Notes: generated by a model not told the origin, from the letters alone. Shown: positions 1-16,873, counted from the first letter of the stretch. The stretch: DNA of 64,000 nt from a virus (IMGVR_UViG_3300002052_000002:1-64000); one strand, 5' to 3'. Made by a program: numbers and translations.

Positions 1-423
1 CTGCTTTAGCTAGATGCAAGACGACTACTCCACATAGGAGCGCCAGAGCCACTGGAACAAAAAGCATTAGTAAGAATTCACACATCAGCCACATCGCTTC
101 CACTTATTATTCCCCTTTCTTTATTTGGATATCTATTTTAACAGTTATTTCATCTTTATCAGATTTATTGGCAAGTTTATACGCATCATCTAATGCATTC
201 CAAAATCGCCTTACCAACTTTATTTGCCATGCTTCTGATTTCCCACTTAATATAGAGCGTAAAGTCCTATGAAATATCATAAAAACATCCCTCTCGCTGT
301 GCTCAGGATGCGTCAGAATAAGAGATAATATCAAATACTATACCAACTCTTATGCTTTTTCATCCTTAATAAATTATGTGTTAGTGCATATAAAAAATAT
401 ACCAATGATTCTAATAAGATAGA

Positions 424-445
424 AAGTGCGCTTACAAGCGCACTT
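424..445. repeat. Perfect 10-bp inverted repeat AAGTGCGCTT-AC-AAGCGCACTT
   Basis: Read directly; lies in the AT-rich gap just downstream of the ParB-like gene. Confidence 0.75.
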
Positions 446-496
446 ATGCTTTAACTCATTGAAAGTATTAAGGAAAATGAAAATCTTGAACTTTTT

Positions 497-1432
497 TCAA
501 TTTTCAACGTATTCTCCTATCCTGTATATTAAATCTAATTCAAATATAGAGCCTTTCTTTTTATCTAAATTCTTATAAATCTCCTTTATTGTTTCCAATA
601 TAGTTCCAAGGAACTGTTTATCCCAACTCTCTGATTTTCCAAAAGTAATCCTAAATTTCTTTTCATTCTCTGCCCATTCTATTTTTGGTTTTGATCCTCC
701 CCATTTCGGCTCATCTTTTTCCCATAACTCCTTAGCTTTCTCGTGTGAGATGTGAAGTTTCTTAGCTAAGTCCCTATGGGATATAAGACCTTTTTCATCT
801 TTTGTTGGGCGGCCCCTCCTTCTTCCAGTAGCTAAACATTTAATTTGTGCTACCGCTTTCTCTTGGTCTTCTATTGTCATTTGTCTTCGGCAGAGATTGA
901 TATTAATGAATAAATCTAATTTCTGATTATCATCCAAATCATCCACTATGATACAAGGAACCTTCTCTATTCCAACTTTCTTAGCCATTATGTAACGATT
1001 TCGACCATCGATAATTTCATTGTTTTTAGTAATGAGAAGAGGAAGTAAGACTCCCTTTTCCTTTATGTCCTCTCCAAGACGCTCTTGGTCTCTTATCGTT
1101 ATATCCATTTTTGGAATAGTTTTAATTGTTAATAGGTCTTTTACGTTCACAAAAACAATAGTATGTTTTGTAATCTTAGACCATACTTTTCTTAATTCTT
1201 CATTGGATAACTTCTTAACATCTTTAAGTTCTTCCTCTGAAGCGTGTTCAAACTTCTGCATCTTTATAAGTCTATCAGGGACTTCCTTTGCGCCTCTAAG
1301 GCGTTTAACCTTAGTACCAAGATTTCTATCTTTCTCCGCCCTGTCTACTTCTTCTTTTAAGAACTTAGCTAAACCCTTGTATTCTTTCTCTTTATAAGAA
1401 ATTGCGTCTGTCATTCTGTCTCCTTTTTCCAT
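497..1432 (-). CDS. ParB/Srx N-terminal domain protein with HTH
   Basis: 'L.EDIKEKGVLLPLLIT...IIDGRNRY..AKKVG...VPC...ININLCRRQMT' ParB-like signature, followed by HTH-like 'SHRDLAKKLHIS'. Confidence 0.85.
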   Translation of the reverse strand: MEKGDRMTDAISYKEKEYKGLAKFLKEEVDRAEKDRNLGTKVKRLRGAKEVPDRLIKMQKFEHASEEELKDVKKLSNEELRKVWSKITKHTIVFVNVKDLLTIKTIPKMDITIRDQERLGEDIKEKGVLLPLLITKNNEIIDGRNRYIMAKKVGIEKVPCIIVDDLDDNQKLDLFININLCRRQMTIEDQEKAVAQIKCLATGRRRGRPTKDEKGLISHRDLAKKLHISHEKAKELWEKDEPKWGGSKPKIEWAENEKKFRITFGKSESWDKQFLGTILETIKEIYKNLDKKKGSIFELDLIYRIGEYVEN

Positions 1433-1752
1433 TTTACTGTGGCCCCAACTGAGCTTAATTTAAGGACTTTTCTAAATCTCCATTCGAATCCGCAGAGTGG
1501 ACATTCAATTCTGACAGGAGTTAGTGATTTAAAAACGTCTTCCTCATATAAACTTTCGTCGAACGCAGCGAAAATGTGGTGACAATTTGGACATACAAAA
1601 TTCATTTTATCCTCCCTATAATATATAAATCTGGCCTTCTAAGTCCCTCTTATACGCCAGAAAATCCCAAAAAGAAAAGAGATTTAACCCATCCACAGAT
1701 AGAATCCATGCACAGAATAATTAAATCTCTTGGGACTTTGGGATATCTCCAT

Positions 1753-1808: not shown

Positions 1809-2360
1809 TCATTCTTCATCCTCATATTCTTCTTCCCACAGTTCGTCATCAAAACGAGTATGGTCAACATATATCTCATCAAGATTTATTTCATCAATAG
1901 TTGGAGTTCCTCGATGGGCAGGTCTCAATTCATCTTCCACCCATTGCCATGTAACTGTTGGTCGTCCTTCTCCCCATCTTAATGGTGGTGGAGTGGGAGG
2001 AGCTGGTTGACGCTCCATAGCTGGTTCCCAATTTGCCCACCTATATGTTCGTTCTCGTAATTCTCCCTCTACTGGTGCTGCTTCTAAGTCAACTAAAATA
2101 TCAGGGATTTCTTGCCAATAAGAACGACCACGATAATCATATATACAATGACCATGTGGTTCTCCAACATTTGGGTCTTCTAATATCAATTGTATTCTAT
2201 CAGATGTGCATTTATCGCATGTGCTAGGACAGGGTTCTATTGCGCGAACTAGCCAGACTCTTCCTACCCTAGAATTACGTTCTGACTCGTGTACTTCGTT
2301 AGGAATTTTACCTTTGAAAATATCGTGTTCTAGATTGTCCTTTTCATGCAATATCTTCAT
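1809..2360 (-). CDS. Hypothetical Cys-containing protein, MKIL N-terminus, acidic tail
   Basis: ORF with GAGG RBS; starts MKILHEK. Confidence 0.7.
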   Translation of the reverse strand: MKILHEKDNLEHDIFKGKIPNEVHESERNSRVGRVWLVRAIEPCPSTCDKCTSDRIQLILEDPNVGEPHGHCIYDYRGRSYWQEIPDILVDLEAAPVEGELRERTYRWANWEPAMERQPAPPTPPPLRWGEGRPTVTWQWVEDELRPAHRGTPTIDEINLDEIYVDHTRFDDELWEEEYEDEE

Positions 2361-2672
2361 ATGTGACCTCTCAGCTCGAAATCGGCGGATGAACCCCGCC
2401 CTCTACCTTCTTATATACGTCCTTATATCTAGAATCTCTTCCCCCTGCAATTATTCTATTATAATAACACCATCTTCGTTACAAGTAATTCTGGTAATCA
2501 TTCGTTCACACATAATGTTCACAGGCAACATTACTGTAGATTTCTCATCATATCTTTTAAGTTGTTTTATTAGCTCCCCACAACTTAATCCTTTACGAAA
2601 ATAACGTGAATCATATTTGGTGTTCATCTTGCCTCCCATTGTAGCGTTTCCCTTCCCTCAAAATTAGATAAC

Positions 2673-2722
2673 TTGCCCAAAATTACGCCAATTTTTACTT
2701 CCTGAAGGTATATATATAATAG
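2673..2722 (+). promoter_or_regulatory. Candidate phage-specific promoter motif, copy 2
   Basis: TTGCCCAAAATTAC-N20-GGTATATATATAATAG in an intergenic gap. Confidence 0.45.
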
Positions 2723-3623
2723 TTATATATTAAGATTGTTCGAGGTTATATATAAAATAATATATAGTAGATGTGATTTTTATGGTTTATCACTTAGTAA
2801 AAAGCCGCCCATCAGCCATCCATCTTCTTATTAGCCAGCCATCGTACAAATTTGAAGAACCAATACATAATTAAGAAGAATGTTACGATTCTGCAAACAA
2901 CATCAATCGTTGGTTCCATCTTTTGACTCCATTTCTAATTGATTCTTTATTGGTAGTCCGCATATTGGACATAGAATAATGCCTTCTGGGCCTAATTTAC
3001 ACACAGTCCCTTCCACTAATTTACATTGACATTTCAGCCATATAGGCCATTTATATTTACTTTCCATACCTCTCACTTCTCAGGGTATTTGTAATCACAT
3101 GATGTTTTAGAACATTTATATGCGGTTAATCCCCACATCTTTTCATATTCGACAAGGTCTGAACCACAGATTGGGCATATCCCAGCATTAATACAAGTAT
3201 TGATATATCGTCTTTGTCTATTCTTCTCTTCTAGAATGTTGATAGCTTTAGCCCAAATGTGTGGATTTATTGTTATTTCTTTAGACATTTATTTATCCCT
3301 CCAGATATACCCTATTAAGCATCCGAAGAATACAAGAGTCAATGCAGCAGAGAAGAATGTACATAACGCCACACTAAAGTCATTAGTATCCGTCATCGCC
3401 TTTTCTCCTACAAACCTCCAAAACCATATTGAGCCGATACCTGCACCTGAAAATATTGTGGTTAGTACCCATTTATCCATATTTTCCTCCTATACTAAAG
3501 GTAGAACGATTCTTTGACAGGCCATGCACCAGTAGTATTTCATCACTTTTTCCCAAATGACCGAAACACTTCGACAAATAGGACATTGATGTATTTCGTA
3601 AAGACCTGTTTCCATTTCACCTC

Positions 3624-5078
3624 CTATAAGTTAGAAGCCCATGTTAAATCATCTAACCAGAAATAATAAAATTTATCACAAAATCCACAATGGAAATCCC
3701 CTGCAACTCTATTAACTTTGTGGTCTTCTATTACACAGTTAAATGCACACCGTTCACATCTTCGCCCACATCTTGGACATACTGCATAATCATAAATTTT
3801 ATTCTTCAGTATTTTCATTCTGCACTCTTGGTCTTCGAACTCTTGTTGGCTTTACCCAAGGACGATTAAATATCCATGCAAATGCCTCTACACATAATGA
3901 ATCTACACGTCTTTTCCTTGCTCTACGATAGAATATTATATTTCCATTACACCTAGTGTGGTCAGTTATTCCCCTTATTTCTGGAATACATGGTCTATTT
4001 CCAATCCATTGTGGTCTTTCTCCTTCTGGTAGCACTCTATAACATAAAATCCCTTCTGAAGTGTCACGAGTTATCGTAACAAATTCAGGCGGTTGCGGTC
4101 TCCAAAACTGGTCTCCATAGAATTCCTGCCACGTTTCAGGGTCTGGACACCATCGTGTTCCTACTTTGTATTTCTCGAATGGGTCATTATGTTCAAGAAT
4201 CTTCACCAGTAAGCTCCTTTAAATCTAATGTTATATAGTCTCCTGCCACATATGGCTCTGTTCGTAGTCTCTTTATTATATAACTTAACCTAATAATCCC
4301 TAGTCTTTCCATACATTCTGTTCGCCTACAGGATACTATGGTATCTATTGGTAATGGTTCTCCACACAATGGGCAAAGTTCAAGTCCTATATCTGATAGG
4401 ACTGAGAGTTTTTCAACAAGTTTTATATTCACACATTTATTTTCTACTTGGTCGAGAATCTTCATCTTTTCCTCTTACGACGACACGCTCTCTTTATTTT
4501 CATTTCCTTATTAAATTTGATATTCTCTTTTCTAATACGAGATTCAGTGAAGAGAATTGTTTCAGTAGTTAAATTTTCAGAAAGATAAACCTTCGATTTA
4601 TTTTTCTTTATATGCTTTAAACTTTTAATGATATTATGAACTTCTTCTTCTAGTCTTTCGAAAAGTTCTTGGTCTAAGAAATCTTCATCGTCCATACAAC
4701 GAGCACATAATGGATAATATCTTGCTGTTAATAGTTTATCTCCACAAACTACACAAGTAGTTATATCTTTATCTAATTCCCACCAACCACCTCGCACCTT
4801 CCGAAAATGCATAGGAAATCGTTTTGGATGTTGGATTTCTAAAATCTTCATCGGCGTCTCCTAACATAAAAATTATTTTCAAAATATTCTAACCCCCATT
4901 CTAAATGGTCTTCGCAGACCCAATGTCCCAATCCTCTATTTATTAACCAGTAATCAACATGGTTACGGCAAGGACGTTCTCCAAGATTATTGCGGTAAAT
5001 ACAGACACCGTGCGTTGGAATCCTATCAAATCTTCCATGAGGTACTTCAACTATTGGTTTCTGTTTTAGGATTTTCAT
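3624..5078 (-). CDS. Run of five overlapping small Cys-rich ORFs (3624-3818, 3799-4206, 4193-4465, 4462-4851, 4848-5078), all starting MKIL
   Basis: ORF track; overlapping start/stop codons; CxxC motifs in most. Confidence 0.75.
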
Positions 5079-6511
5079 TCATTTCCCTTTATTAATTTCA
5101 AATTCCTTTTTAATCTACTCCAAGTTTTATGATTTGTAAGCTCAGAAGAGATTTGTGTTCCTTCTTTCAAATTCTCCAATATATATTCGTCAATAGAATC
5201 CTTTAGTTGTAAGACATAATAGAAACAGGTTTGTTTTTGTCCTATTCTATGGATTCTATCCTGAGATTGGTTAAAAGCTGTTAGCCCCCAAGACATATTA
5301 TAGTATATAATATAACTAGCTGCGGTTAGAGTCAGCCCAAATCCCCCAGTAGTAGGACTGGCTATCATTATTCTAATTTCTTGGTCTTCCATAAACTTAT
5401 CTACAATTCTTTCCCTATCTTTTGGTGACATTGCTCCAGCTAATATTACATAGTTTTGTCCAACGGAAGATAACATATCAGCTATTAGCTCTGTTTCTTT
5501 TACCCACCACCTATAAATAATTATCTTTTCTCGCAATGGTATCTCGAAGATAAGGTCTCGTAATAATAGAAGTTTTGGGTTAGGATGGAATAAAACAGGG
5601 TCTTTATCCGTATAGAGGAATCCGCCAGCTATCTGACTTAGCTTCATTAATTGGGTGAGGATATTATCAACTCTAACATTCCCTTCGTCAAATTCCATTT
5701 TATGTACCAAGCCATCAGCTATCGGTCTATACAGCTCTACTTGGTCTTTACTTAAATAAGAAATCCTTTTATTCCAAACCTTTTCTGGTAGGTCAAGACA
5801 CTCTTCTTTACGCACACGGACTGCATTTATAAACATTCGCTCTTGGAATTCCTTTTCTATTTCTGGTTTTATTGCCCATTTTGGAAACTTCCATCCTATA
5901 TTCTTAAAATAAATATTCCTTGCTCTGTAAATATTTTCTCCAAAAGTTTCCCCCCTATCAATAATTCTGTATATAGTCAATAACTTAGTAAGGTCACGGT
6001 CTGATGGAGTTCCAGATAAGCCAATAACATAACCAGCTCTGTCACAAAGAATCTGTAAAGCTTTTGTTCGTAAAGTTGTCATATTTTGAGCGAAGGTTAC
6101 TTCATCCAAAATAATCATTCCGAATTTATGTTGTATAACTTTATCAAGTAATACCCCTAGAGTAGAATCTCTTCTGCCTGGAAGGGAGTCATAACTAATT
6201 ATAAATATTGAAGAATTGCTTCCAAGAAGTTTTATCTTTCTCTCTAAGCTGCCAACCAGCTTAGTATAATTGAAATAAGTATGCTCTTCTATTTGGTCTG
6301 CCCACGATTCTACTACTGATAGTGGACAAACAATCAATAGACTTTTAACTAGTCCTTGTCTATATAACATAGCAAATTTAGCCAAAGCTATCAAAGATTT
6401 ACCAGTCCCACAATCGCTCCAATCAGCACTTCTTGTTTTAGTTAAATGGAATTGCAGATTGTTAACTTGATGTTGAAATAAATCTTTCTTTAGTATCGGT
6501 ATCTTTTTCAT
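5075..6511 (-). CDS. SNF2-family helicase/ATPase
   Basis: Motif I DCGTGKS, Ia LIVCPLSV, II ILDE, III LSGTP, V GFGLTLTAA, VI QSQDRIHRIGQ. Confidence 0.95.
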   Translation of the reverse strand: MKKIPILKKDLFQHQVNNLQFHLTKTRSADWSDCGTGKSLIALAKFAMLYRQGLVKSLLIVCPLSVVESWADQIEEHTYFNYTKLVGSLERKIKLLGSNSSIFIISYDSLPGRRDSTLGVLLDKVIQHKFGMIILDEVTFAQNMTTLRTKALQILCDRAGYVIGLSGTPSDRDLTKLLTIYRIIDRGETFGENIYRARNIYFKNIGWKFPKWAIKPEIEKEFQERMFINAVRVRKEECLDLPEKVWNKRISYLSKDQVELYRPIADGLVHKMEFDEGNVRVDNILTQLMKLSQIAGGFLYTDKDPVLFHPNPKLLLLRDLIFEIPLREKIIIYRWWVKETELIADMLSSVGQNYVILAGAMSPKDRERIVDKFMEDQEIRIMIASPTTGGFGLTLTAASYIIYYNMSWGLTAFNQSQDRIHRIGQKQTCFYYVLQLKDSIDEYILENLKEGTQISSELTNHKTWSRLKRNLKLIKGNE

Positions 6512-7137
6512 TTATCTCTCATCGTTATCTGAATAGATTGGGTTCCCATTTGCATCATATACCATAAATGCTCCTGCTAGTAGACCTCCTCTATGGAGAT
6601 GAGCGTAGTCTTTCAGACATATTCCTGATGCTTTTCTTCCATCCTCTGACCATCTAAAATGATATAAGGTATAGTCCCACTGGCAGTTATTTTTATAACG
6701 GCATTGTGCTATTCTATGGCACACAGAGTGTCCGTAATTTGTCCAACGCCCTCTTTCTGCGCTAGACTTAAGATAACATCCTTGAAAGTTTAATATTTTA
6801 TTCTTCAATATCTTCATATTATTTCATCCTCGAAAACAGGCACCCATTCGGAGTCCCTGCTTTCACTCCTATATAATAACCACTTTCCTGCTTCTGGTCG
6901 CTCCCCACGATAGTGTAAATAATTTACAAGACATAGATTTTCTGCCTGCCGGAGAGCCTCTGAAAATTGTAGATGAAATAGAGTATGGTTAAAAGGACAT
7001 CCTTTCCTTTTAGAATATGCACAACGCGGCTCTCTATCGCATTGGTGGTAATCATATATATACCAATGTCCTACTTTCCCATTAGCCAGGAGTTGGTATT
7101 CCCGCCAATCTTTATCTTTATGACTCAGTATCTTCAT
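6512..7137 (-). CDS. Two tandem paralogous Cys/His proteins (6512-6817, 6814-7137), both MKIL-initiated
   Basis: Shared pattern G.W..Y....C.R...C.Y...C....TL.H...SE.......CL..Y.H. Confidence 0.75.
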
Positions 7138-7281
7138 AATATTCTTCTAATCCTTCTTCAACTCTCTTTTTCTCTTTTGACCGACTATATACTGTTGTTG
7201 GGTCTATGACTTTATTTGGCTTCAAAGGTGCTCTAACAGGGACTTTCCACTTCTTTTCCTTTAATCGCTTATAGTTAGTCT

Positions 7282-8973
7282 TCATCCTGCATGCCCTTCG
7301 CTTTCTACTTGCTTAACGCATTCATCATGCTTTTGGCAGTATAGACAACTATGTCTTTTATATTTGAGCATTACATTAAATGGCTCATACTCTCCACAGA
7401 CATACGCTCTATCTCCAAATTTATCAAACTTATCTGCGGATTGACGATTGCTGCCTACATTCTTATTTGTATTGCTGGCGTTTCCTTCAACTGGAACAGG
7501 GAGATTCTTTACTTCTTGTTTTGCCTGGTCTACTGTATCTTTCCCCTCTTGCTTATCTCTTTCATAGACACTTTCAAGAACTCTCTGTTCTATCTCATCG
7601 ACATTCGTGAAATCGAATCTCATTATTTCGTCTTCTACTTTAGTTTTTCCATGCTTTATTGTGAAGACGATTTCAACATCGTCTATTCCAATGAAGTCAT
7701 ATCCTTCTAATTCTTTTGGCATTTTATCGTCGTCTGGAGCAAGAGTTATAGCAATGATGTTGTCTCTGTGGTCGAGATACGCCCGTATGAAAGTTGTCTC
7801 TCTACGTTGGTAGGAATATCCTTGAACAAGGCCAATTTCTCCCTCAGCGATAGCGTCGTCAATATCCATGAGGAAATGTTTCTTCGCCTCTTGGTCCCAT
7901 TTCTTTGCGAGCTGCCTATCTGTACTGACATAACCTTTCCCAGAAGTTAGCTTTACCCAATCGTTGAAATCTTTAGAATTTCCATCGAACCAAAACTTAT
8001 TATGTTTCTCTGTGAAAGGAAATTCTTGATAGTCTAACCACGCTTGGATGTCGGGGTCAAAGTAATATCCATATTCCTCATCAGTCTTTGGGTCAAGTAG
8101 CTGAGTTGTATTACTTTCGTCCTTGTTCTTATCTTTATCTGTATTCCTATTGTATCTATCTCTCCAATGTTCTCCTTCAGAATATCCGTCCCATCCATTC
8201 CATCCATGACCCCCTATATAACCATGTCCAGCTCCATAGAAATATCTAGATTTGGTTTTGTATGTAAAAAGCTCTTTGATTTCGATAGGATTTACAGATA
8301 TCTCATACATAACTTCATCTTTCATTCTGAGGACTGTTCCATCTGGGAATCCATTAAATCCCCCACTATTGAGGAATTTTGGAATCGAATTGAATATGAT
8401 ATCATCGTCAGATGCAAAGATTATCATCTTTCTATGGGGACGAAATCCTAAATATACTGGAGAAACATACCTTGTGATAAAAATCTTATGCGGGTTCTTC
8501 TTTTCCAGTATAACGAAAGACCCACTACCATATCCAAGCCAAGGCATGGCTTTTTCCATCCCTTCCGTTTCTACATAGGATAGAAAGATTTCTGTATCAA
8601 CCTCACCCTGATACTTGTAATCTTTCAGCTTTGGCAAAGAATGAAGCATACCATTATGGATGGCATAGTAATGTTCAGACTCTACTGGATGGTTATTGAC
8701 ATTATCTTTCTCTGACCCCATTGTGGCAGCTCTGACATGTCCGAAAGCTAATACAGCTTTACCTAATGGTTCCATGAATTTATGCATATGAACTTTGTCA
8801 TAGTTCTCTGCATCTAATGGAGCTTTATGTGTAGTTATATTCCCTTCTTTATCCACACAAAGTAATCCAGTAGCATCACGACCTCTGAGTCTTGAGTTAT
8901 ACATAAGCCTTCGGAATACTTCAGCATTCTCTTTCTTTGGCTCTGGTGTAACGAATCCGAAAATACCGCACAT
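7282..8973 (-). CDS. Class II (Ntn) glutamine amidotransferase, phiEco32-cluster type, with long C-terminal extension
   Basis: N-terminal MCGIFG, RGRDATG, GHVRAAT, NNHP, HNG, VDTE. Confidence 0.93.
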   Translation of the reverse strand: MCGIFGFVTPEPKKENAEVFRRLMYNSRLRGRDATGLLCVDKEGNITTHKAPLDAENYDKVHMHKFMEPLGKAVLAFGHVRAATMGSEKDNVNNHPVESEHYYAIHNGMLHSLPKLKDYKYQGEVDTEIFLSYVETEGMEKAMPWLGYGSGSFVILEKKNPHKIFITRYVSPVYLGFRPHRKMIIFASDDDIIFNSIPKFLNSGGFNGFPDGTVLRMKDEVMYEISVNPIEIKELFTYKTKSRYFYGAGHGYIGGHGWNGWDGYSEGEHWRDRYNRNTDKDKNKDESNTTQLLDPKTDEEYGYYFDPDIQAWLDYQEFPFTEKHNKFWFDGNSKDFNDWVKLTSGKGYVSTDRQLAKKWDQEAKKHFLMDIDDAIAEGEIGLVQGYSYQRRETTFIRAYLDHRDNIIAITLAPDDDKMPKELEGYDFIGIDDVEIVFTIKHGKTKVEDEIMRFDFTNVDEIEQRVLESVYERDKQEGKDTVDQAKQEVKNLPVPVEGNASNTNKNVGSNRQSADKFDKFGDRAYVCGEYEPFNVMLKYKRHSCLYCQKHDECVKQVESEGHAG

Positions 8974-8974
8974 T

Positions 8975-10654
8975 TTAAATTCCCTCCGTTTCTTGGATTG
9001 ATGCTTGTAAAATCCAACCTATCCTTCTATATAGTCTTTCATTCTTTTTAGCCCCCTGTGCCCAGATAGTAGGGAATAGAATAACCACATCTGGATATGG
9101 AGCTTGCCCACGCCGTTGTGTTAAATATTGGTAATCTTGAGAATACTTCAATAAATCATCCACTGTCTTATAATTTAGATGCTCGATATAATGTAGCCTT
9201 GCCACTCTATCTAATTGTTCAATTGCTTTCCTTGAGATTCCGAAGCTGACCAGAGAGTTACCACTATACTCTATCTGGACAGATATATTGTGTCTCAATC
9301 TGCAAGGAACAGGAGTGAAATATTTCTTTATATCGGCATTCCTAGAGATAATAGTAATAGAAGAGCGTCGCTTCTTCGCTATTCTCCAGTTTGGAGCGAT
9401 ATCGACTCCTTCCAATTTAACCTTACCTTTGTTCGTTACAAACATTTCGATGAACATATCTATATCTTTTTTGTAGGCATAATATAATGGGAGGGATTTT
9501 AATGTATGAATCGTCTCTCCATCTTTATATGCCCCATCGTATACCGCTTTAGTCAAAGCATATGTAGTCACAATGATACATTGGCACATATCTTCAGATA
9601 CTATATAAGAAGGTAATTGTCTCCATTCCCATCCACCGTGTGGCTTGTTCGGTCTAAACGCATCACGGCCACCTTCTCGTATAATGTCTGTAAGGTCATT
9701 TCTGATTCCAGTTTGATGTTTAAGTACATATATGCCAATATGCTTGTGTAATAGATGTGGTAATTCTTTAGGATACGATTTCTCACTGAAATGGATATGC
9801 CCGCCAGTATTTACTTTAGTTCCACCACCAGCAAAGATGAGAGATTCAGGTGGAATCGATTCTGAATTGAGAAGTTTCCTCATTACCCTTTTGATATTTC
9901 TCATCAAGTGATAAGGACTTCTGCCAGGGTCTGGACGTATCTCTCCAGTTTCTAGATGACCATCAGTTCCAATCTCTTTACCACCATGGAAAAATACATT
10001 AGCTCCAATGAGCCGTCCTCTCTTATCTATTATCTCAAATTCTGGGTCAGCCCCAACGAGTAAAGATTTGGAGAATATCCTACCAGAAGTTCGTACTTCG
10101 TGGATTTTAGTAAGAATATCTTTCATAAGTGGCACAAACTTTTGGGCAAGATGGGTAATGTCTGAAAGCCATAATAGATTAACTTTCAGGTTATAAAATC
10201 CCATCTCACTTCGGTCAGCATCATTTATAAAAGTGATATCCTTCTGAATATTTCCAGGCAGTTCTATATATTCTTTCTGGTAGCGATGAGATAATGGAAT
10301 GGTAACAGTGATTGGTACGAATCTTGGAGTCTTTATGCGAAGATGGGCAAGGATTTCACTTCTATTATATTCCCTTGTAGTTGCAGTTCCTTCATCATAT
10401 TCGCAGTAGATATAGATTGTGTTTGGTTGTAAGATACCGTAGCCTTGTGTTCCATCTGGATGTGGGTCATCCAGTCTTCTCATATGGTCGACACTATATT
10501 CTTTCATATCTCTACTAAGTACCATAACACCATTATGAGATACAATAGTTTTTAGTTCGCACCGTCTGATTAGAGGAGCCAATTCTTCTACAGCATCCTT
10601 TGTACAACCTTCATGCTCCATCAAGATTTCAATAGGATACTTAGCTCCTGTCAT
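8975..10654 (-). CDS. phiEco32-like COOH-NH2 ligase with extra N- and C-terminal domains
   Basis: VGADPEFEI, IGTDG...GEIRP.P, GGHIHF, HGGWEWRQLPS. Confidence 0.88.
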   Translation of the reverse strand: MTGAKYPIEILMEHEGCTKDAVEELAPLIRRCELKTIVSHNGVMVLSRDMKEYSVDHMRRLDDPHPDGTQGYGILQPNTIYIYCEYDEGTATTREYNRSEILAHLRIKTPRFVPITVTIPLSHRYQKEYIELPGNIQKDITFINDADRSEMGFYNLKVNLLWLSDITHLAQKFVPLMKDILTKIHEVRTSGRIFSKSLLVGADPEFEIIDKRGRLIGANVFFHGGKEIGTDGHLETGEIRPDPGRSPYHLMRNIKRVMRKLLNSESIPPESLIFAGGGTKVNTGGHIHFSEKSYPKELPHLLHKHIGIYVLKHQTGIRNDLTDIIREGGRDAFRPNKPHGGWEWRQLPSYIVSEDMCQCIIVTTYALTKAVYDGAYKDGETIHTLKSLPLYYAYKKDIDMFIEMFVTNKGKVKLEGVDIAPNWRIAKKRRSSITIISRNADIKKYFTPVPCRLRHNISVQIEYSGNSLVSFGISRKAIEQLDRVARLHYIEHLNYKTVDDLLKYSQDYQYLTQRRGQAPYPDVVILFPTIWAQGAKKNERLYRRIGWILQASIQETEGI

Positions 10655-12072
10655 TCTAACACCTCCTTTGCTTTAGATTTATAACCACCATTTCTTGTCA
10701 CCCCGATTATTCATTGTTCGACTGAAAGCAGTTGAAATTGCCTCAGAGACTCGCTCATCGACATAGTTTTCGATTTGCTGAATCATAGGAAATACTTCCG
10801 CATCAACAGCATCCTGACTCCATCTGGCAATCTCATCATCAGATTTTCCGCGAGTCACGCTCTCTACTATCTCTCTGGCAATTTCTTCCAGCCGTCGTTC
10901 AGATAACATCTTCTAGCCTCCTTTCTTTATTTAGCTGTTCGTTGTACAAAAAGGACATCAACCATGATAGTGCATCCCTCCAATGCTGCATCTGTCACTG
11001 TCATATCAGTATCTTTCGATTTCCTAACATATTTGCCAACTGTGTTCATAGTCTCATCCGATAAGGACGCAACAAGAAGGCATTGGTCATTCCCAATTTT
11101 GCAAGGAATTAGGTCTTTCTTACCAAATCCTATTAGTTTCCGCATCCACTCAAAAGTTTCTAAATCTGTTTTCTTAAATGCAATGATTTTGACCATTTTA
11201 CCTCCTAACACTTTCTTGAGTTTTGGCTTCTTATGCTTTCTGCCCATACTCCCATCTCTCCTTTTAGGGATTATTAGACTGACAATAGAATAGAATAGTA
11301 ATCCTACCAAGAATAAAACTATTAGAACCATAACTCCACAGAAGTTTTTAACTCTATCAATCATACTTCTCCTTGCCACAGATAGTACATCTCCATTTGA
11401 GTGGCATACCTTTCGCAGTTTTCATCTGATTGCAGAGTCGATACCCCTTTCCGTATTTCTTATCCTGATAGTCATCGTTACAATCACATTTCCTCAACGC
11501 TGTCATAGCCATATCTCGCTCCCTTAAATAACGTATAGAAATTGGCTATAATTGTAGACTGTTGGGCATTGTTCCACTTTATATTTAAATATACGTCCAC
11601 GCCACCATTTTCTATATTTGTTCCAGCTCCCTGCTACGTCCTCAGCATGTCCATATGAAGTATAAATTACCTTTGGACGACCATAAAGTGTAACCATCCA
11701 TAGTGTAGTTGGGTATATCCGCCGTATATCTTTTGCAGCGTAATCTACTATTGGAACTAGCGTCATATCAAAGCCCAATAATGTAGTCTTTATGGTTCCT
11801 TTATGTTCTACGACTTTCATATCATCCCCACAATTGTTCATAAAGATAGGCAATATATCTGGTTCCTTGATGGAAGTTGTGGCAAGCAGTGGGATAAAGA
11901 CGAGTACCTTCACATTTCGTGTCATTTAATTCTTGTGCTAGCTTCTCCAACTCATTAGGATTATTAGTTAAATCCTCCCTAATCCACCAGATTCTGTAGC
12001 CTTTTATTGAATTATCTCGATTCTTTTTGAATGTTTGCTGAGTAAGATATTTTGGCAGATGGTTTAGAATTT

Positions 12073-12606
12073 TCACTTAATCTCCTTCATCCATACATCA
12101 GTGCCTCGATTTGTAAGCCAAACTTTGCGCCATCTAGTTCTTTTCATAGATTTCGCAGCAACAAGATTATCAGCTTGTACACGAGCTACCATTATATCTA
12201 TCCCATGAGTTTTTGCAATCTCCTCTTTCATAGCATGGAGAACATAAGAATAACCTTTATCACGATATTTCTCCTCAATGCGCATCCCAGAAGAATATAT
12301 GATAAAATTATCTCCACTTATTTCTCCAGCAAGAGTAAGACAGAAACTCCCAAAATAATCACTGAATTTTGCATTGGGAGTTCTAGTATAGATATTCACA
12401 GTTACTCTTTCTCCCCCATCATTTCCTGAATTGAACCAAAGTCTCAAAGAAGCTCCAGATGGTAATAGAACTTTCCAATTATCGAAGACTTTTTCTATGG
12501 ATTCTCTATGGAAAAGTTCTCTTTCCCAAGCATTCTTTTCAACCTTGAGTTTCTTTTCATGCTTAGATACTGTCACAAACATACTATCATTTTGTAATAC
12601 CTTCAT
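12073..12606 (-). CDS. GNAT acetyltransferase (MKVL N-terminus)
   Basis: 'IEEKYRDKGYS' acetyl-CoA motif A and 'DNLVAAK...W' motif B. Confidence 0.75.
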   Translation of the reverse strand: MKVLQNDSMFVTVSKHEKKLKVEKNAWERELFHRESIEKVFDNWKVLLPSGASLRLWFNSGNDGGERVTVNIYTRTPNAKFSDYFGSFCLTLAGEISGDNFIIYSSGMRIEEKYRDKGYSYVLHAMKEEIAKTHGIDIMVARVQADNLVAAKSMKRTRWRKVWLTNRGTDVWMKEIK

Positions 12607-13397
12607 TCTTCTCTCCTTTCTAAGAAATTGTGTATGGCGTTAACGAATCGGCGAGCATTTATATCGCCAAATTCTGGTCGGCTATTAACCTCAAGAACAT
12701 ATAAGTTTCTTCCCTGCATAATAATATCTACCGCACCAAAATCATATTCTAATGCTCTCAACGCTGCCTCTCCTATATTTTTGACGTTTCGACGCAGACC
12801 TCTTTCTTCTCCAACTCCGCCCCATCTTGCTCCTCTATGTTCATTCCATCTGAAGTCCCCATTGGCAGGGGCAAACTTTTCCATAAAGAAAGCCATTATG
12901 CGATGAACCATCATCGCTCTGAACTCTCTATCCTTCTCTATATATTCCTGATATAATTGGTCCCGTTTGAAGCCAGGTCTATTAGTCAATCTCATGCCAG
13001 TTCCCATCTGTCCTACATCTGGTTTAACTACCAAGCGTGGATTACCTGCTCTCTCCCACTGTGCTCTAGTATTATAGACAGTTGGGACAGCAACTCCAGC
13101 ATTTGTAAATAAACGATTCTGCTCTACTTTTCCAATCACTAATCGTGGATTGAGAATTCTCACTCCATTTGGATAGTGTCCTTGGAACCTGCCATGATTA
13201 GCTCCCCATCTTACGATAGTATCACCACGACCAGCTCTTCCATTATAATGTCGCCATCCTCCAATATCAGCAATCCTTCTCCAAGTAGTTAAATGTGCGT
13301 CTGCATCGATGTAAATCATTAGCGTCGTCTCCTTTCTTTGAATAAGAAGAATTCTAATTCTGATTCGGAAATGCACCATATAGAACCATCTTCGCAC
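12603..13397 (-). CDS. ATP-grasp peptide ligase (RimK-like); likely start 13319
   Basis: VVKPD.G..GTGM, YQEYI..DREFR, DFGAVDII, YVLEVNSRP. Confidence 0.92.
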   Translation of the reverse strand: MRRWFYMVHFRIRIRILLIQRKETTLMIYIDADAHLTTWRRIADIGGWRHYNGRAGRGDTIVRWGANHGRFQGHYPNGVRILNPRLVIGKVEQNRLFTNAGVAVPTVYNTRAQWERAGNPRLVVKPDVGQMGTGMRLTNRPGFKRDQLYQEYIEKDREFRAMMVHRIMAFFMEKFAPANGDFRWNEHRGARWGGVGEERGLRRNVKNIGEAALRALEYDFGAVDIIMQGRNLYVLEVNSRPEFGDINARRFVNAIHNFLERREE

Positions 13398-13618
13398 TCT
13401 ACTTCCATAAAATCTGTTGTGCAGTCTTCACATAAATCAGGTTCTATTAATCTATCATTGTGGTCGGAATAACTATCCTTTGCACATTTCCTATATCCTA
13501 CTATTTTACGCCAATAAGGTTCTTCTTCGTCCTCCGTATCTTCTACATATGCAAGATATGAACCTATTGGTGCTAATTCCTCAACTGTCTTGTGATTTTT
13601 CTGCTTCAATATTTTCAT
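13319..13618 (-). CDS. Hypothetical Cys-rich protein, probable start at internal MKILKQK
   Basis: ATG at 13618 preceded by GAGG; the ORF track begins 24 nt earlier. Confidence 0.65.
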   Translation of the reverse strand: MKILKQKNHKTVEELAPIGSYLAYVEDTEDEEEPYWRKIVGYRKCAKDSYSDHNDRLIEPDLCEDCTTDFMEVECEDGSIWCISESELEFFLFKERRRR

Positions 13619-13815
13619 CGGCTGATTCCTCAAATTCAGCATCTATTACGTTGGCATCTCTGCCAGGTAATAGTGCTCTACCTCCCTTCATTAGGTACGT
13701 AGTGTCAGAAGTTAGACTTACTTTCTCTACATCACAACCAAGCTCTGCAGCGACGTCTTTCACTTGGTCTAGGATGTATTCGAGGTAGTCCATATCATCA
13801 TCGTGAATTTGAATG

Positions 13816-14259
13816 TCAAGTTCTATCTTCGCCTTCATCTTCCTCCCCTATTTGATAGTAATATTCTTCGTCCTCTTCATCCTCAAGCTTATCGCCTCTG
13901 AGAATTCTTTCTATTATATCTAGTGGGATTCCCCTCTCTTTTAAATCCTCTATATAGACTTCATATGGGTCTGTTATAATCATCAACTCAAAGTTTGGGG
14001 AACTATTTCCACATTCTCTGCATTCATATCTATCTATTTCAATTTGTTGATGCTCCTCATCTAAATTTTCTTCAGCTCTTCCAAACTCATCAACAAGTGA
14101 TATTCCCCTAACAGTTGATGTCCACATGGCGACTATGTTCTCTGGAGCTCTACAGGCAACACACCAATACCTACCTCCACCGCCTACACTACTCAGCCAC
14201 TCATCATACGTGGGGATATTTATTTCTTTCTTCTCTGGTTTGTTTAGAATAATTTTCAT
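13816..14259 (-). CDS. Zn-ribbon protein (CxxC...CxxC), MKIIL N-terminus, acidic tail
   Basis: CVAC and CREC motifs. Confidence 0.7.
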   Translation of the reverse strand: MKIILNKPEKKEINIPTYDEWLSSVGGGGRYWCVACRAPENIVAMWTSTVRGISLVDEFGRAEENLDEEHQQIEIDRYECRECGNSSPNFELMIITDPYEVYIEDLKERGIPLDIIERILRGDKLEDEEDEEYYYQIGEEDEGEDRT

Positions 14260-15601: not shown

Positions 15602-16873
15602 TTATTCCTCCTCTAATTTCTTTTCTGGCGACCATCTGTAGACACAGCCATTCTTATTATCAGAATGAGTATGCCACGACCCATCCAAATACCAATTCTT
15701 ATGAATGGCATTGATATCAAAGAAGTTGTCAACTCCTGAATAAATCATATCTAATAAAGCCTTATGGGTATTCTCGTGGTAGTTTGAGTATCTCCGTTTG
15801 ATAAGTCCTGCAAAGACTGCTTCATTAGATTTTATGACCTTCTTCGCTTTTGGGATATCATAATTATTTATGATTCCTACAATCACATCTTCTTTGACAG
15901 GAAGAATCAATTTGAATATCGGATAATTTAGCCCAAGAAATATAGCTGCTCTCGTCATATCATAAGAGAAATGATATACAACAGGAGAAACTAGGACTGC
16001 AGAACTTGGAGTCCTATATTCAATTCCATGGGATGGGAAACGATATTCCCCCGCTCTTCCATAGTACATCCGTCTTAATGGGCTTTCAACTTTTTGAAAC
16101 ATTGAGACAGACATGATTCCAAAAATGGCATCTGCTGCCTTAATCATATTTATTTTTTCTTCTTCCTTCCTTCCACTTAAGCCAAAATGGAAATGACAGC
16201 CAGCGAATCTAATTGGAAGAGCCGCAGGGTCTTGGACTTGGATGGATGGCGTGTTATAAACATTTTTACTAGGGGCACACCCTAGTTCAATATGCTCTGG
16301 TTTAGCGTCCGCCATTACCTCTGTTGGGATATCCATCACACTTTTGTATGTGAACTGACATTTTCTGTCGAAGGCTCTAGCAGCTTTCCATAATTTGACG
16401 AGTTGATAGTGTGTAGCATCTGTGAAGTATGCTAAACATCCACCATGAGGAACAGTAAATTCCGCCTGGAATCCATCCCAAAATACTCCTTCCCCACTTT
16501 GTTTCGCTGCCTTTTTGTTAGGCAAGAATTTGAAGGCTGGAATTACGATGCCATCTTTGTCCACTACGAATATCTCTGGGTCACCTCCGACGGTGCATCC
16601 TGATACTTGAGCGTAGTGCAATAGCTTTGCCCTACTCTCTGCAGTCATCCCCTTTAAGTCGGCTGTTCCCGCTATAGTACAACGTTCACTCTCTTCCGTC
16701 CTGATGTAGGAACTGTTGCCATTATCGATGTCGATGAGTCTTCCAGATACTATCTTACTTGGTCTGTCATGATACATATCTGTGAAGACGCCGATGGTGC
16801 CCTGGTATTTGATTATCTTACCAGCGCATTCTATCAATAATGGGGGCATCTTCGACCGCCGTTTAAGAATCAT
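15602..16873 (-). CDS. Second phiEco32-like COOH-NH2 ligase (type 2)
   Basis: VGGDPEIFV, DGFQAEF, LGC.PS.NVY, RFAGCHFHFG, RRMYYGRAGEYR...HGIEYRTPS. Confidence 0.92.
   Translation of the reverse strand: MILKRRSKMPPLLIECAGKIIKYQGTIGVFTDMYHDRPSKIVSGRLIDIDNGNSSYIRTEESERCTIAGTADLKGMTAESRAKLLHYAQVSGCTVGGDPEIFVVDKDGIVIPAFKFLPNKKAAKQSGEGVFWDGFQAEFTVPHGGCLAYFTDATHYQLVKLWKAARAFDRKCQFTYKSVMDIPTEVMADAKPEHIELGCAPSKNVYNTPSIQVQDPAALPIRFAGCHFHFGLSGRKEEEKINMIKAADAIFGIMSVSMFQKVESPLRRMYYGRAGEYRFPSHGIEYRTPSSAVLVSPVVYHFSYDMTRAAIFLGLNYPIFKLILPVKEDVIVGIINNYDIPKAKKVIKSNEAVFAGLIKRRYSNYHENTHKALLDMIYSGVDNFFDINAIHKNWYLDGSWHTHSDNKNGCVYRWSPEKKLEEE

Follow-up and report, generated by a model that had tools for sequence, protein, structure and literature searches.

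Why should so many small and mostly unrelated proteins, encoded close together in one viral genome, begin with the same four residues? The question is raised by a 64-kb stretch of DNA (IMGVR_UViG_3300002052_000002, positions 1-64000; here, the window), which is the first part of one 112,900-bp contig. An initial annotation noted that about a dozen small proteins encoded between 1.8 and 14.3 kb share the N-terminal peptide Met-Lys-Ile-Leu (MKIL), and suggested a sorting or docking tag or a recognition leader for the peptide ligases encoded among them. In our analysis, all ten MKIL starts of that annotation were recovered on the minus strand, as were its three variant starts (MKVL, MKIIL, and MKVV), each at the position it had reported. 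MKIL heads ten of about 27 genes in this region, and each of the thirteen starts belongs to an open reading frame (ORF) of 64 to 183 amino acids. In the following list, genes that start with MKIL are called tagged genes, and the strength of a start refers to its Shine-Dalgarno (SD) site.

1809-2360, minus strand: tagged gene, 183 amino acids, MKILHEK; a very acidic ORFan with no Pfam, PHROG, or phage tblastn match
3624-3818, minus strand: tagged gene, 64 amino acids, MKILKNK; Cys-rich, with the weakest SD (-2.4 kcal/mol) and a 20-nucleotide overlap with the upstream gene
3799-4206, minus strand: tagged gene, 135 amino acids, GTG start, MKILEHN
4193-4465, minus strand: tagged gene, 90 amino acids, MKILDQV; ATGA overlap with the upstream stop codon
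4462-4851, minus strand: tagged gene, 129 amino acids, MKILEIQ; CxxC pairs, ATGA overlap
4848-5078, minus strand: tagged gene, 76 amino acids, MKILKQK; ATGA overlap with the end of the SNF2 gene
6512-6817, minus strand: tagged gene, 101 amino acids, MKILKNK; paralog of 6814-7137 (31% identity)
6814-7137, minus strand: tagged gene, 107 amino acids, MKILSHK; paralog of 6512-6817
11822-12076, minus strand: tagged gene, 84 amino acids, GTG start, MKILNHL
13319-13618, minus strand: tagged gene, 99 amino acids, MKILKQK; the longest ORF begins at 13642, 8 codons upstream, but an SD is found only at the MKIL start
12073-12606, minus strand: variant start MKVLQND, 177 amino acids
13816-14259, minus strand: variant start MKIILNK, 147 amino acids
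11524-11820, minus strand: variant start MKVVEHK, 98 amino acids

That no protein beyond 14.3 kb starts with MKIL, as the initial annotation held, is true of the window, in which the only further MKIL start heads an ORF of 6 codons, but not of the remaining genome. A whole-genome scan found eight more, seven on the minus strand (94166, 94342, 94523, 97056, 106604, 106767, and 108798) and one on the plus strand (85298). Thus, the pattern is real but larger than first described, with 18 MKIL starts genome-wide. Sixteen of the 18 genes form a distinct class of small ORFans (59 to 183 amino acids) in which MKIL is followed by polar residues, and all 16 lie on the minus-strand arm of the genome. 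Two genes were rejected as carriers of the tag because their hydrophobic run is that of an ordinary first beta-strand: an Mre11-type phosphoesterase gene (MKILLFTDLH) and a glycosyltransferase/radical-SAM fusion gene (MKILWFP), in both of which the run continues beyond the tetrapeptide. Mre11/SbcD proteins usually begin with MKIL. The MKILWFP protein (genome positions 85298-87571, plus strand; L144:1298-3571) has 757 amino acids, combines a GT-B glycosyltransferase with a B12-binding radical-SAM domain, and is encoded in a late glycan cluster.

The frequency of MKIL is far from chance. It heads 18 of the 209 called genes, whereas position-specific residue frequencies in the remaining genes predict 0.19 (Poisson p of about 1e-29), and in 5000 column shuffles no tetrapeptide ever rose above 6 copies. 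When compared with the N termini of other viruses, as the initial annotation had proposed, the rate of MKIL starts (ORFs of at least 50 amino acids) was 0.81 per kb in the tagged stretch, whereas 25 unrelated viral loci totaling 450 kb had 0.009 per kb. These numbers are too high for a general translation-initiation bias alone, K or N followed by I or Y at residues 2 to 5 being only about 2-fold enriched across phage genes. In a comparison set of 85 other viral loci, each 8 kb or longer and together comprising 1.16 Mb and 1711 genes, no N-terminal tetrapeptide exceeded 3 copies per locus, with the exception of two loci with 9 and 4 copies. These two, both from IMG/VR phages with a distant amidoligase, are an array of nine Cys-rich proteins of about 70 amino acids starting with MSKII (L020:735-19300) and an array of four proteins starting with MKIY (L008:6615-8350). 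They resemble the present case in that runs of small phage genes have a Lys-Ile-bearing start as their best-conserved part (the first 12 to 15 residues). However, they were rejected as second examples because they are ordinary tandem paralog families whose members can be aligned end to end (E values down to 1e-23), which the MKIL proteins cannot. A degenerate DNA pattern for MKILKHK gave 117 single matches in IMG/VR and no contig with several, and a literature search returned no relevant account of MKIL in phages or of a conserved N terminus on unrelated early phage proteins.

What is conserved is the peptide and not the DNA. As the initial annotation had described, the starts use ATG or GTG and the tag codons vary: Lys is encoded by AAA in nine genes and AAG in seven; Ile by ATA in eight, ATT in five, and ATC in three; and Leu by all six of its codons, from both the TTR and CTN families and hence with different tRNAs. 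The choice of Lys and Ile codons matches genome usage (p = 0.88 and 0.84), Leu codons show a mild excess of G-ending ones (p = 0.04), and the A/U bias at synonymous sites is not specific to gene starts. Codon positions 1 and 2 hold most of the information content, with third positions close to background; the same is true of third positions in codons 5 to 7, which were not used in picking the set and read xAx-CAx-AAx. No replacement is found in the 48 tag codons, and this, beside randomized synonymous sites and protein bodies that are similar only at random level, requires purifying selection. The constraint is also positional. The nucleotide motif ATGAARATHYTN occurs away from gene starts 3 times (about 2.3 expected), internal KIL occurs 15 times (15.3 expected), the extended motif is never internal, and upstream of the tagged genes nothing is conserved beyond the purine-rich SD. 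The codon-position pattern and the restriction to the N terminus therefore indicate a constraint on the encoded residues at the very N terminus. The earlier claim of selection on the peptide rather than DNA duplication is thus borne out, synonymous sites being randomized to genome-wide usage, and so is the argument that ATGA coupling is unable to account for Ile-Leu.

Apart from their starts, the tagged proteins are unrelated, as had been claimed with the reservation "mostly." In all-against-all blastp and tblastx comparisons only the proteins starting at 6817 and 7137 are paralogous (31% identity, E = 9e-16), and the remaining pairs align solely over their first 6 to 14 residues. The tblastx comparison among tagged genes showed no frameshifted similarity, and frameshifted paralogy was rejected. 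Smith-Waterman scores from residue 11 to the end were at shuffle level (median z of -0.13), equal to those of 16 control genes. Database searches returned no Pfam match for the ten tagged proteins of the window, no PHROGs match for the 16 tagged proteins and the variants, and no tblastn match of three tagged proteins in phages. A word-indexed search of 5.8 billion proteins with the 7137 and 97056 proteins found only the queries themselves; the independent gene calls in that database use the same MKIL starts (107, 101, and 111 amino acids). A hidden Markov model (HMM) of the 6817 and 7137 proteins searched against 1.8 billion representatives matched only themselves and repeat proteins. The annotation of the variant protein starting at 12606 as a GNAT acetyltransferase stands on a weak YycN similarity, found at an E value of 0.75.

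The shape of the motif is that of a short core followed by a polar arm. After the invariant M-K-I-L, the consensus continues with K (8 of 16) or another polar residue, H, Q, or N (13 of 16), and K or D (10 of 16), and residues 5 to 12 are 24% hydrophobic, compared with 45% in other genes of the same arm. The variants MKVL, MKIIL, and MKVV are conservative in hydrophobicity and never of the translation-equivalent form MN; no MNIL, MKYL, or MKI followed by another residue is found in the class, and Leu is the fourth residue in 18 of 21 MKI starts. Extended tags are alike between distant genes (3818 and 6817, 5078 and 13618, 94523 and 106767, 94342 and 106604) and not between neighbors, which argues against simple tandem descent. 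In the predicted single-sequence model of the 97056 protein (predicted local distance difference test [pLDDT] score of 67.6), residues 1 to 12 are coil, the first strand spans residues 13 to 18, and a beta-rich domain begins at residue 13; the AlphaFold2 model of the 7137 protein was too poor to use (pLDDT of 48). Foldseek detected no significant match to the 97056 model among viral structures, and a structure search of ESM Atlas yielded unnamed viral clusters only.

The genome has two gene arms, evident from its GC skew and from the gene calls, and the tagged genes are confined to one of them. A JGI metagenome contig, Ga0209635_10013479 (99.2 to 99.9% identity), joins the two ends of the genome with a 67-nucleotide overlap (window 1-1687 and genome 108033-112900; L146). 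The genome is therefore either a circle or circularly permuted, and its minus-strand arm continues without a break from 36.3 kb through position 1 and 112.9 kb to 90.3 kb. This arm contains small early genes, the ligase/SNF2 cluster, and replication and recombination genes; Pfam identified ParB_N, SNF2, a class II amidotransferase, two phiEco32-like COOH-NH2 ligases, a RimK-like ATP-grasp protein, RecA, Metallophos (Mre11-type), an SMC-like ATPase, a DnaB-primase, and PolA fused to a uracil-DNA glycosylase domain. The plus-strand (virion) arm, from 36.3 to 90.3 kb, carries terminase, portal, capsid, tail, and glycan genes. No tRNA genes were found in the phage genome. Twelve of the 16 tagged genes occur in runs of two to five, a count that takes in the Mre11 gene in the run after recA: five follow the SNF2 gene, two precede it, two follow recA (and are followed by the MKIL-starting Mre11 gene), and two follow the primase-helicase gene. 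The enzymes encoded among or near the tagged genes of the window are the following.

5075-6511, minus strand: SNF2-family helicase, untagged (starts with MKKIPILKK), followed by five tagged genes in succession
7282-8973, minus strand: protein with a class II glutamine amidotransferase domain
8975-10654, minus strand: phiEco32-like COOH-NH2 ligase (PF14395), untagged
12603-13397, minus strand: RimK-like ATP-grasp ligase
15602-16873, minus strand: second COOH-NH2 ligase, outside the tagged stretch

The ATP-grasp ORF counted from GTG at 13397 would overlap the tagged gene at 13319-13618 by 79 nucleotides; the start is likely the ATG at 13319, which has a strong SD (GAAAGGAGA).

Tagged genes also differ from others in how their translation starts. 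Their SD sites are weak, with a median duplex energy of -6.35 kcal/mol versus -10.3 kcal/mol for the untagged genes of that arm (p = 4e-5) and -9.3 kcal/mol for other overlapping genes (p = 0.002), values for the comparison genes that are somewhat inflated because starts were chosen partly by SD strength. Fourteen of 16 tagged genes overlap the upstream gene, compared with 35% of the others. The tag is carried by 14 of the 41 weak-SD genes on the minus arm but by only 3 of its 101 strong-SD genes (odds ratio of 17, p = 1.5e-6). Local mRNA folding energy does not differ, whereas the A content at +4 to +33 is higher in tagged genes (0.50 versus 0.40). Some tagged proteins end in runs of Arg or Glu (...VRRRR, ...KERRRR, and ...RRKRKR, elsewhere ...EDEE; 4848-4865, 13319-13335, and 4462-4480, minus strand). 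These tails are an in-frame reading of the SD site of the next overlapping gene (e.g., AGGAGACGCCG before ATG), so that the C termini of tagged proteins are partly dictated by coupling. Elsewhere on the minus strand, between 14600 and 36300, about 66 small early genes have uniformly strong SDs (median of -10.6 kcal/mol) and no MKIL start, in sharp contrast to the weak-SD, overlapping tagged genes further down the arm.

A sorting or docking tag in the general sense is a plausible explanation of these data. Our tentative reading, which we hold with less than even confidence, is that MKIL and the approximately eight polar residues behind it form a free N-terminal address tag that is read by one partner. 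Slightly more doubtful is the fuller version of it, in which a private N-terminal code (MKIL-K-H/Q-K, 4 to 7 residues on a flexible polar arm) may mark at least 16 proteins of the DNA-metabolism arm for a common reader, which would degrade, dock, or modify them together. One partner would then grip at least 16 unrelated small accessory proteins by their starts, and these would be handled as a class. We infer such a partner from the selection on amino acids, its specificity for the N terminus, the unrelated bodies, and the confinement to the non-virion arm. The last of these lends support to a tag, as all 16 genes are on the minus arm, while 27 weak-SD genes of the virion arm and the early genes between 14.6 and 36 kb are untagged. 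A tag would also account for the invariant four-residue anchor with its graded flanks, the polar arm, and variants that keep their hydrophobicity, and the 97056 model, with its coil ahead of the first strand, agrees with it. The T4 capsid targeting sequence (PMC3012670) and N-terminal ClpX degrons are precedents. Lys at position 2 is expected to block removal of the initiator Met. The leading candidate for the partner, with about half of the weight of the address-tag reading, would be a host AAA+ unfoldase-protease such as ClpXP, whose binding at the tag would give timed removal of the tagged proteins. The remaining weight falls on docking to a phage machine of the DNA-metabolism modules, with smaller shares for modification by the ligases and packaging into the capsid.

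ClpXP is suggested because ClpX N-motif 2 begins with Met, a basic residue, and two hydrophobic residues (as quoted in bioRxiv 10.1101/2020.10.04.325795 and PMC12723719), a pattern that M-K-I-L fits in 16 of 16 proteins. The likeness extends to a strictly N-terminal position and unrelated substrates, and the unstructured stretch behind the tag would suit an unfoldase. In contrast, position 5 of the motif is hydrophobic in none of the 16 tagged proteins, all of which are polar there, position 11 is hydrophobic in 7 of 16, and the motif was defined in E. coli. Several further points weigh against an address tag. The partner is postulated, and close relatives for comparison were not found in the databases searched. 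Four core residues would make a very short site for specific docking, and the structural evidence consists of one medium-confidence and one poor single-sequence model. Neither weak SDs nor overlapping starts are predicted by a tag. Finally, a documented early-elongation enhancer of the Lys-Ile type works whatever the synonymous codons (PMC6920384), so that conservation at the peptide level is compatible with a translational role.

That role constitutes the most serious alternative, to which we give somewhat less weight than to the tag: MKIL would be a Lys-Ile early-elongation "ramp" that, together with A-rich polar codons, secures output from coupled or reinitiating starts with weak SDs. With similar reserve, the uniformity of the starts could be ascribed to descent or copying within fast-evolving arrays of small genes, with no binding partner at all. 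A translation-level explanation is kept alive by the strong association of the tag with weak SDs and overlapping starts, and the higher A content of the tagged genes, the conserved Lys-Ile starts of the MSKII and MKIY arrays, and the roughly 2-fold enrichment of K/N-I/Y near the starts of phage genes at large agree with it. In the published screen (Verma et al. 2019; PMC6920384), K or N followed by I or Y at codons 3 to 5 gave the highest yields whatever the synonymous codon, and "KIH" was a high expresser. The tag resembles that motif in having Lys-Ile just after the start, often as KIL-K-H, and in acting through residues. However, the published motif follows Met-Val and is degenerate (K/N, I/Y, and many third residues, with many tripeptides equally good), whereas the tag is one exact tetrapeptide found 16 times at codons 2 to 4, one codon earlier, with invariant Leu and in one gene class; Lys-2 and Ile-3 are present in all tagged genes, and the degeneracy is not. 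The invariant Leu-4 and the preferences for H or Q at residue 6 and K at residue 7 are not predicted by the screen, and the accessible change from K to N is never seen. Furthermore, all 27 weak-SD genes on the virion arm and another 27 on the minus arm are untagged, there is no A/U bias specific to the starts at synonymous sites (codons 2 to 4 lean the opposite way, with G-ending Leu in excess), folding energy is the same in tagged and other genes, and the extended tags are alike between distant genes instead of neighbors. Under the tag and the translation explanation alike, uniformity and junction architecture can be put down to descent within arrays, but such descent is unable to explain 48 codons free of replacements beside randomized synonymous sites. 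The same fact, along with bodies at random level, makes it improbable that the tag is a functionless relic of one ancestral or copied gene start, perhaps that of the Mre11-type gene, which has not yet diverged. The clustering of 12 tagged genes in runs, the one pair (6817 and 7137) that is still recognizably paralogous, and the Mre11 homolog, itself starting with MKIL directly after two tagged genes, favor a relic, yet upstream sequences are unconserved and tblastx detected no frameshifted similarity.

The three remaining alternatives are less probable still. A recognition leader, through which the neighboring ATP-grasp and COOH-NH2 ligases and the amidotransferase would modify the tagged proteins (e.g., on Lys 2, 5, or 7), is suggested by the Lys-rich tag, by the 10 tags and three variants interleaved with these enzymes within 12 kb, and by an ATP-grasp protein that is weakly similar to maturase models of ribosomally synthesized and posttranslationally modified peptides (RiPPs), although more weakly than to RimK. 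The arrangement recalls RiPP systems with many precursors (e.g., those of graspetide ATP-grasp enzymes), in which genes for ATP-grasp enzymes and amide ligases are interspersed with those of several small products that begin with one shared peptide. However, RiPP leaders usually have 10 to 30 residues followed by a conserved core, whereas the tagged proteins have unrelated folded or Zn-ribbon-like bodies of up to 183 amino acids without a common core motif. More than a third of the tagged genes (6 of 16) are at least 20 kb from the ligases, beside recA, Mre11, and primase-helicase genes, and in 24 viral loci with related but distant amidoligases (25 to 33% identity), in which we looked for the tag as the initial annotation had proposed, no start was shared by nonparalogous genes. 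Because all ligase matches are far below family cutoffs, the substrate class cannot be deduced from them; ligase clusters could just as well have small molecules or DNA bases as their substrates. These results leave the leader, the second of the original proposals, with a very low probability. Lower again is that of the analogy offered along with the first, the T4-type capsid targeting sequence, by which the tagged proteins would enter the scaffolding core and so be packaged and injected. The T4 internal proteins (IPI to IPIII) and Alt are a diverse set that have only this short N-terminal sequence in common and are read by one machine (PMC3012670), and the tagged proteins are likewise small, some of them very basic or very acidic. 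On the other hand, the T4 sequence has about 10 residues, ends in a prohead-protease site, and serves a few late-assembled cargo proteins, while here 4 to 7 residues are found on 16 carriers, an unusually large number of cargo species. No conserved cleavage site (e.g., hydrophobic-x-Glu) occurs at a fixed distance, no residue beyond position 7 is fixed, no prohead protease was recognized among the head genes by Pfam and PHROGs (a gene set not exhaustively scanned), and the tagged genes lie within DNA-metabolism operons on the arm opposite the virion genes. Finally, the conserved bases might constitute an operator overlapping the gene starts, such as a T4 RegA-like repressor site, a promoter, or a recombination element. 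About nine bases around the start codon are fixed in many genes of one arm, and RegA-type repressors bind the initiation regions of many early mRNAs. The fixed sites are, however, exactly codon positions 1 and 2, while third bases and the C/T first base of Leu vary; the motif is at chance outside gene starts, upstream conservation ends with the SD, and promoter and terminator scans stayed at shuffle level. The codon-position pattern led us to reject a DNA or RNA operator, which on these sequences appears very unlikely and is the least probable of all the explanations considered.

On either view, simple counting suffices to detect a short terminus that is shared by unrelated ORFans and is far from chance. 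Should it prove to be an address label, the tag would constitute a protein-level "regulon" of viral short linear motifs, which is undescribed for N termini beyond T4 capsid targeting. It would provide one handle on 16 phage proteins without known function and might lead to the machine by which they are handled; it could also serve to direct or destabilize cargo during infection, as has already been done with the T4 targeting sequence. As a translation device, the tag would instead offer an unusually clear natural example of first residues selected for output at coupled starts that are poor in ribosome-binding sites, and useful for operon design.

No close relative of this phage came to light in the databases searched. 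Among GenBank phages, the region had no megablast match and the amidoligase no tblastn match; tblastn of the capsid protein gave only remote matches (22 to 29% identity), and nothing close to the SNF2 helicase, the amidoligase, or PolA was present in the IMG/VR sequences scanned. A scan of JGI metagenomes with the primase-helicase found only a 99 to 100% identical fragment and a relative with 25% identity. The amidoligase homologs P0002 and P0007 have 57% and 32% identity, respectively, and P0007 is encoded on an 82-kb contig. The family A DNA polymerase (genome positions 103528-105948, minus strand; L145:3528-5948) joins an N-terminal domain of the uracil-DNA glycosylase superfamily to 3'-5' exonuclease and polymerase domains. 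Among the repeat proteins matched by the HMM of the paralogous pair is P0045 (1096 amino acids, with RyR-domain repeats), to which residues 44 to 77 of the query align in 17 stretches (E = 7e-14). This similarity hints that the pair (window 6512-7137) may carry an RyR-like module.

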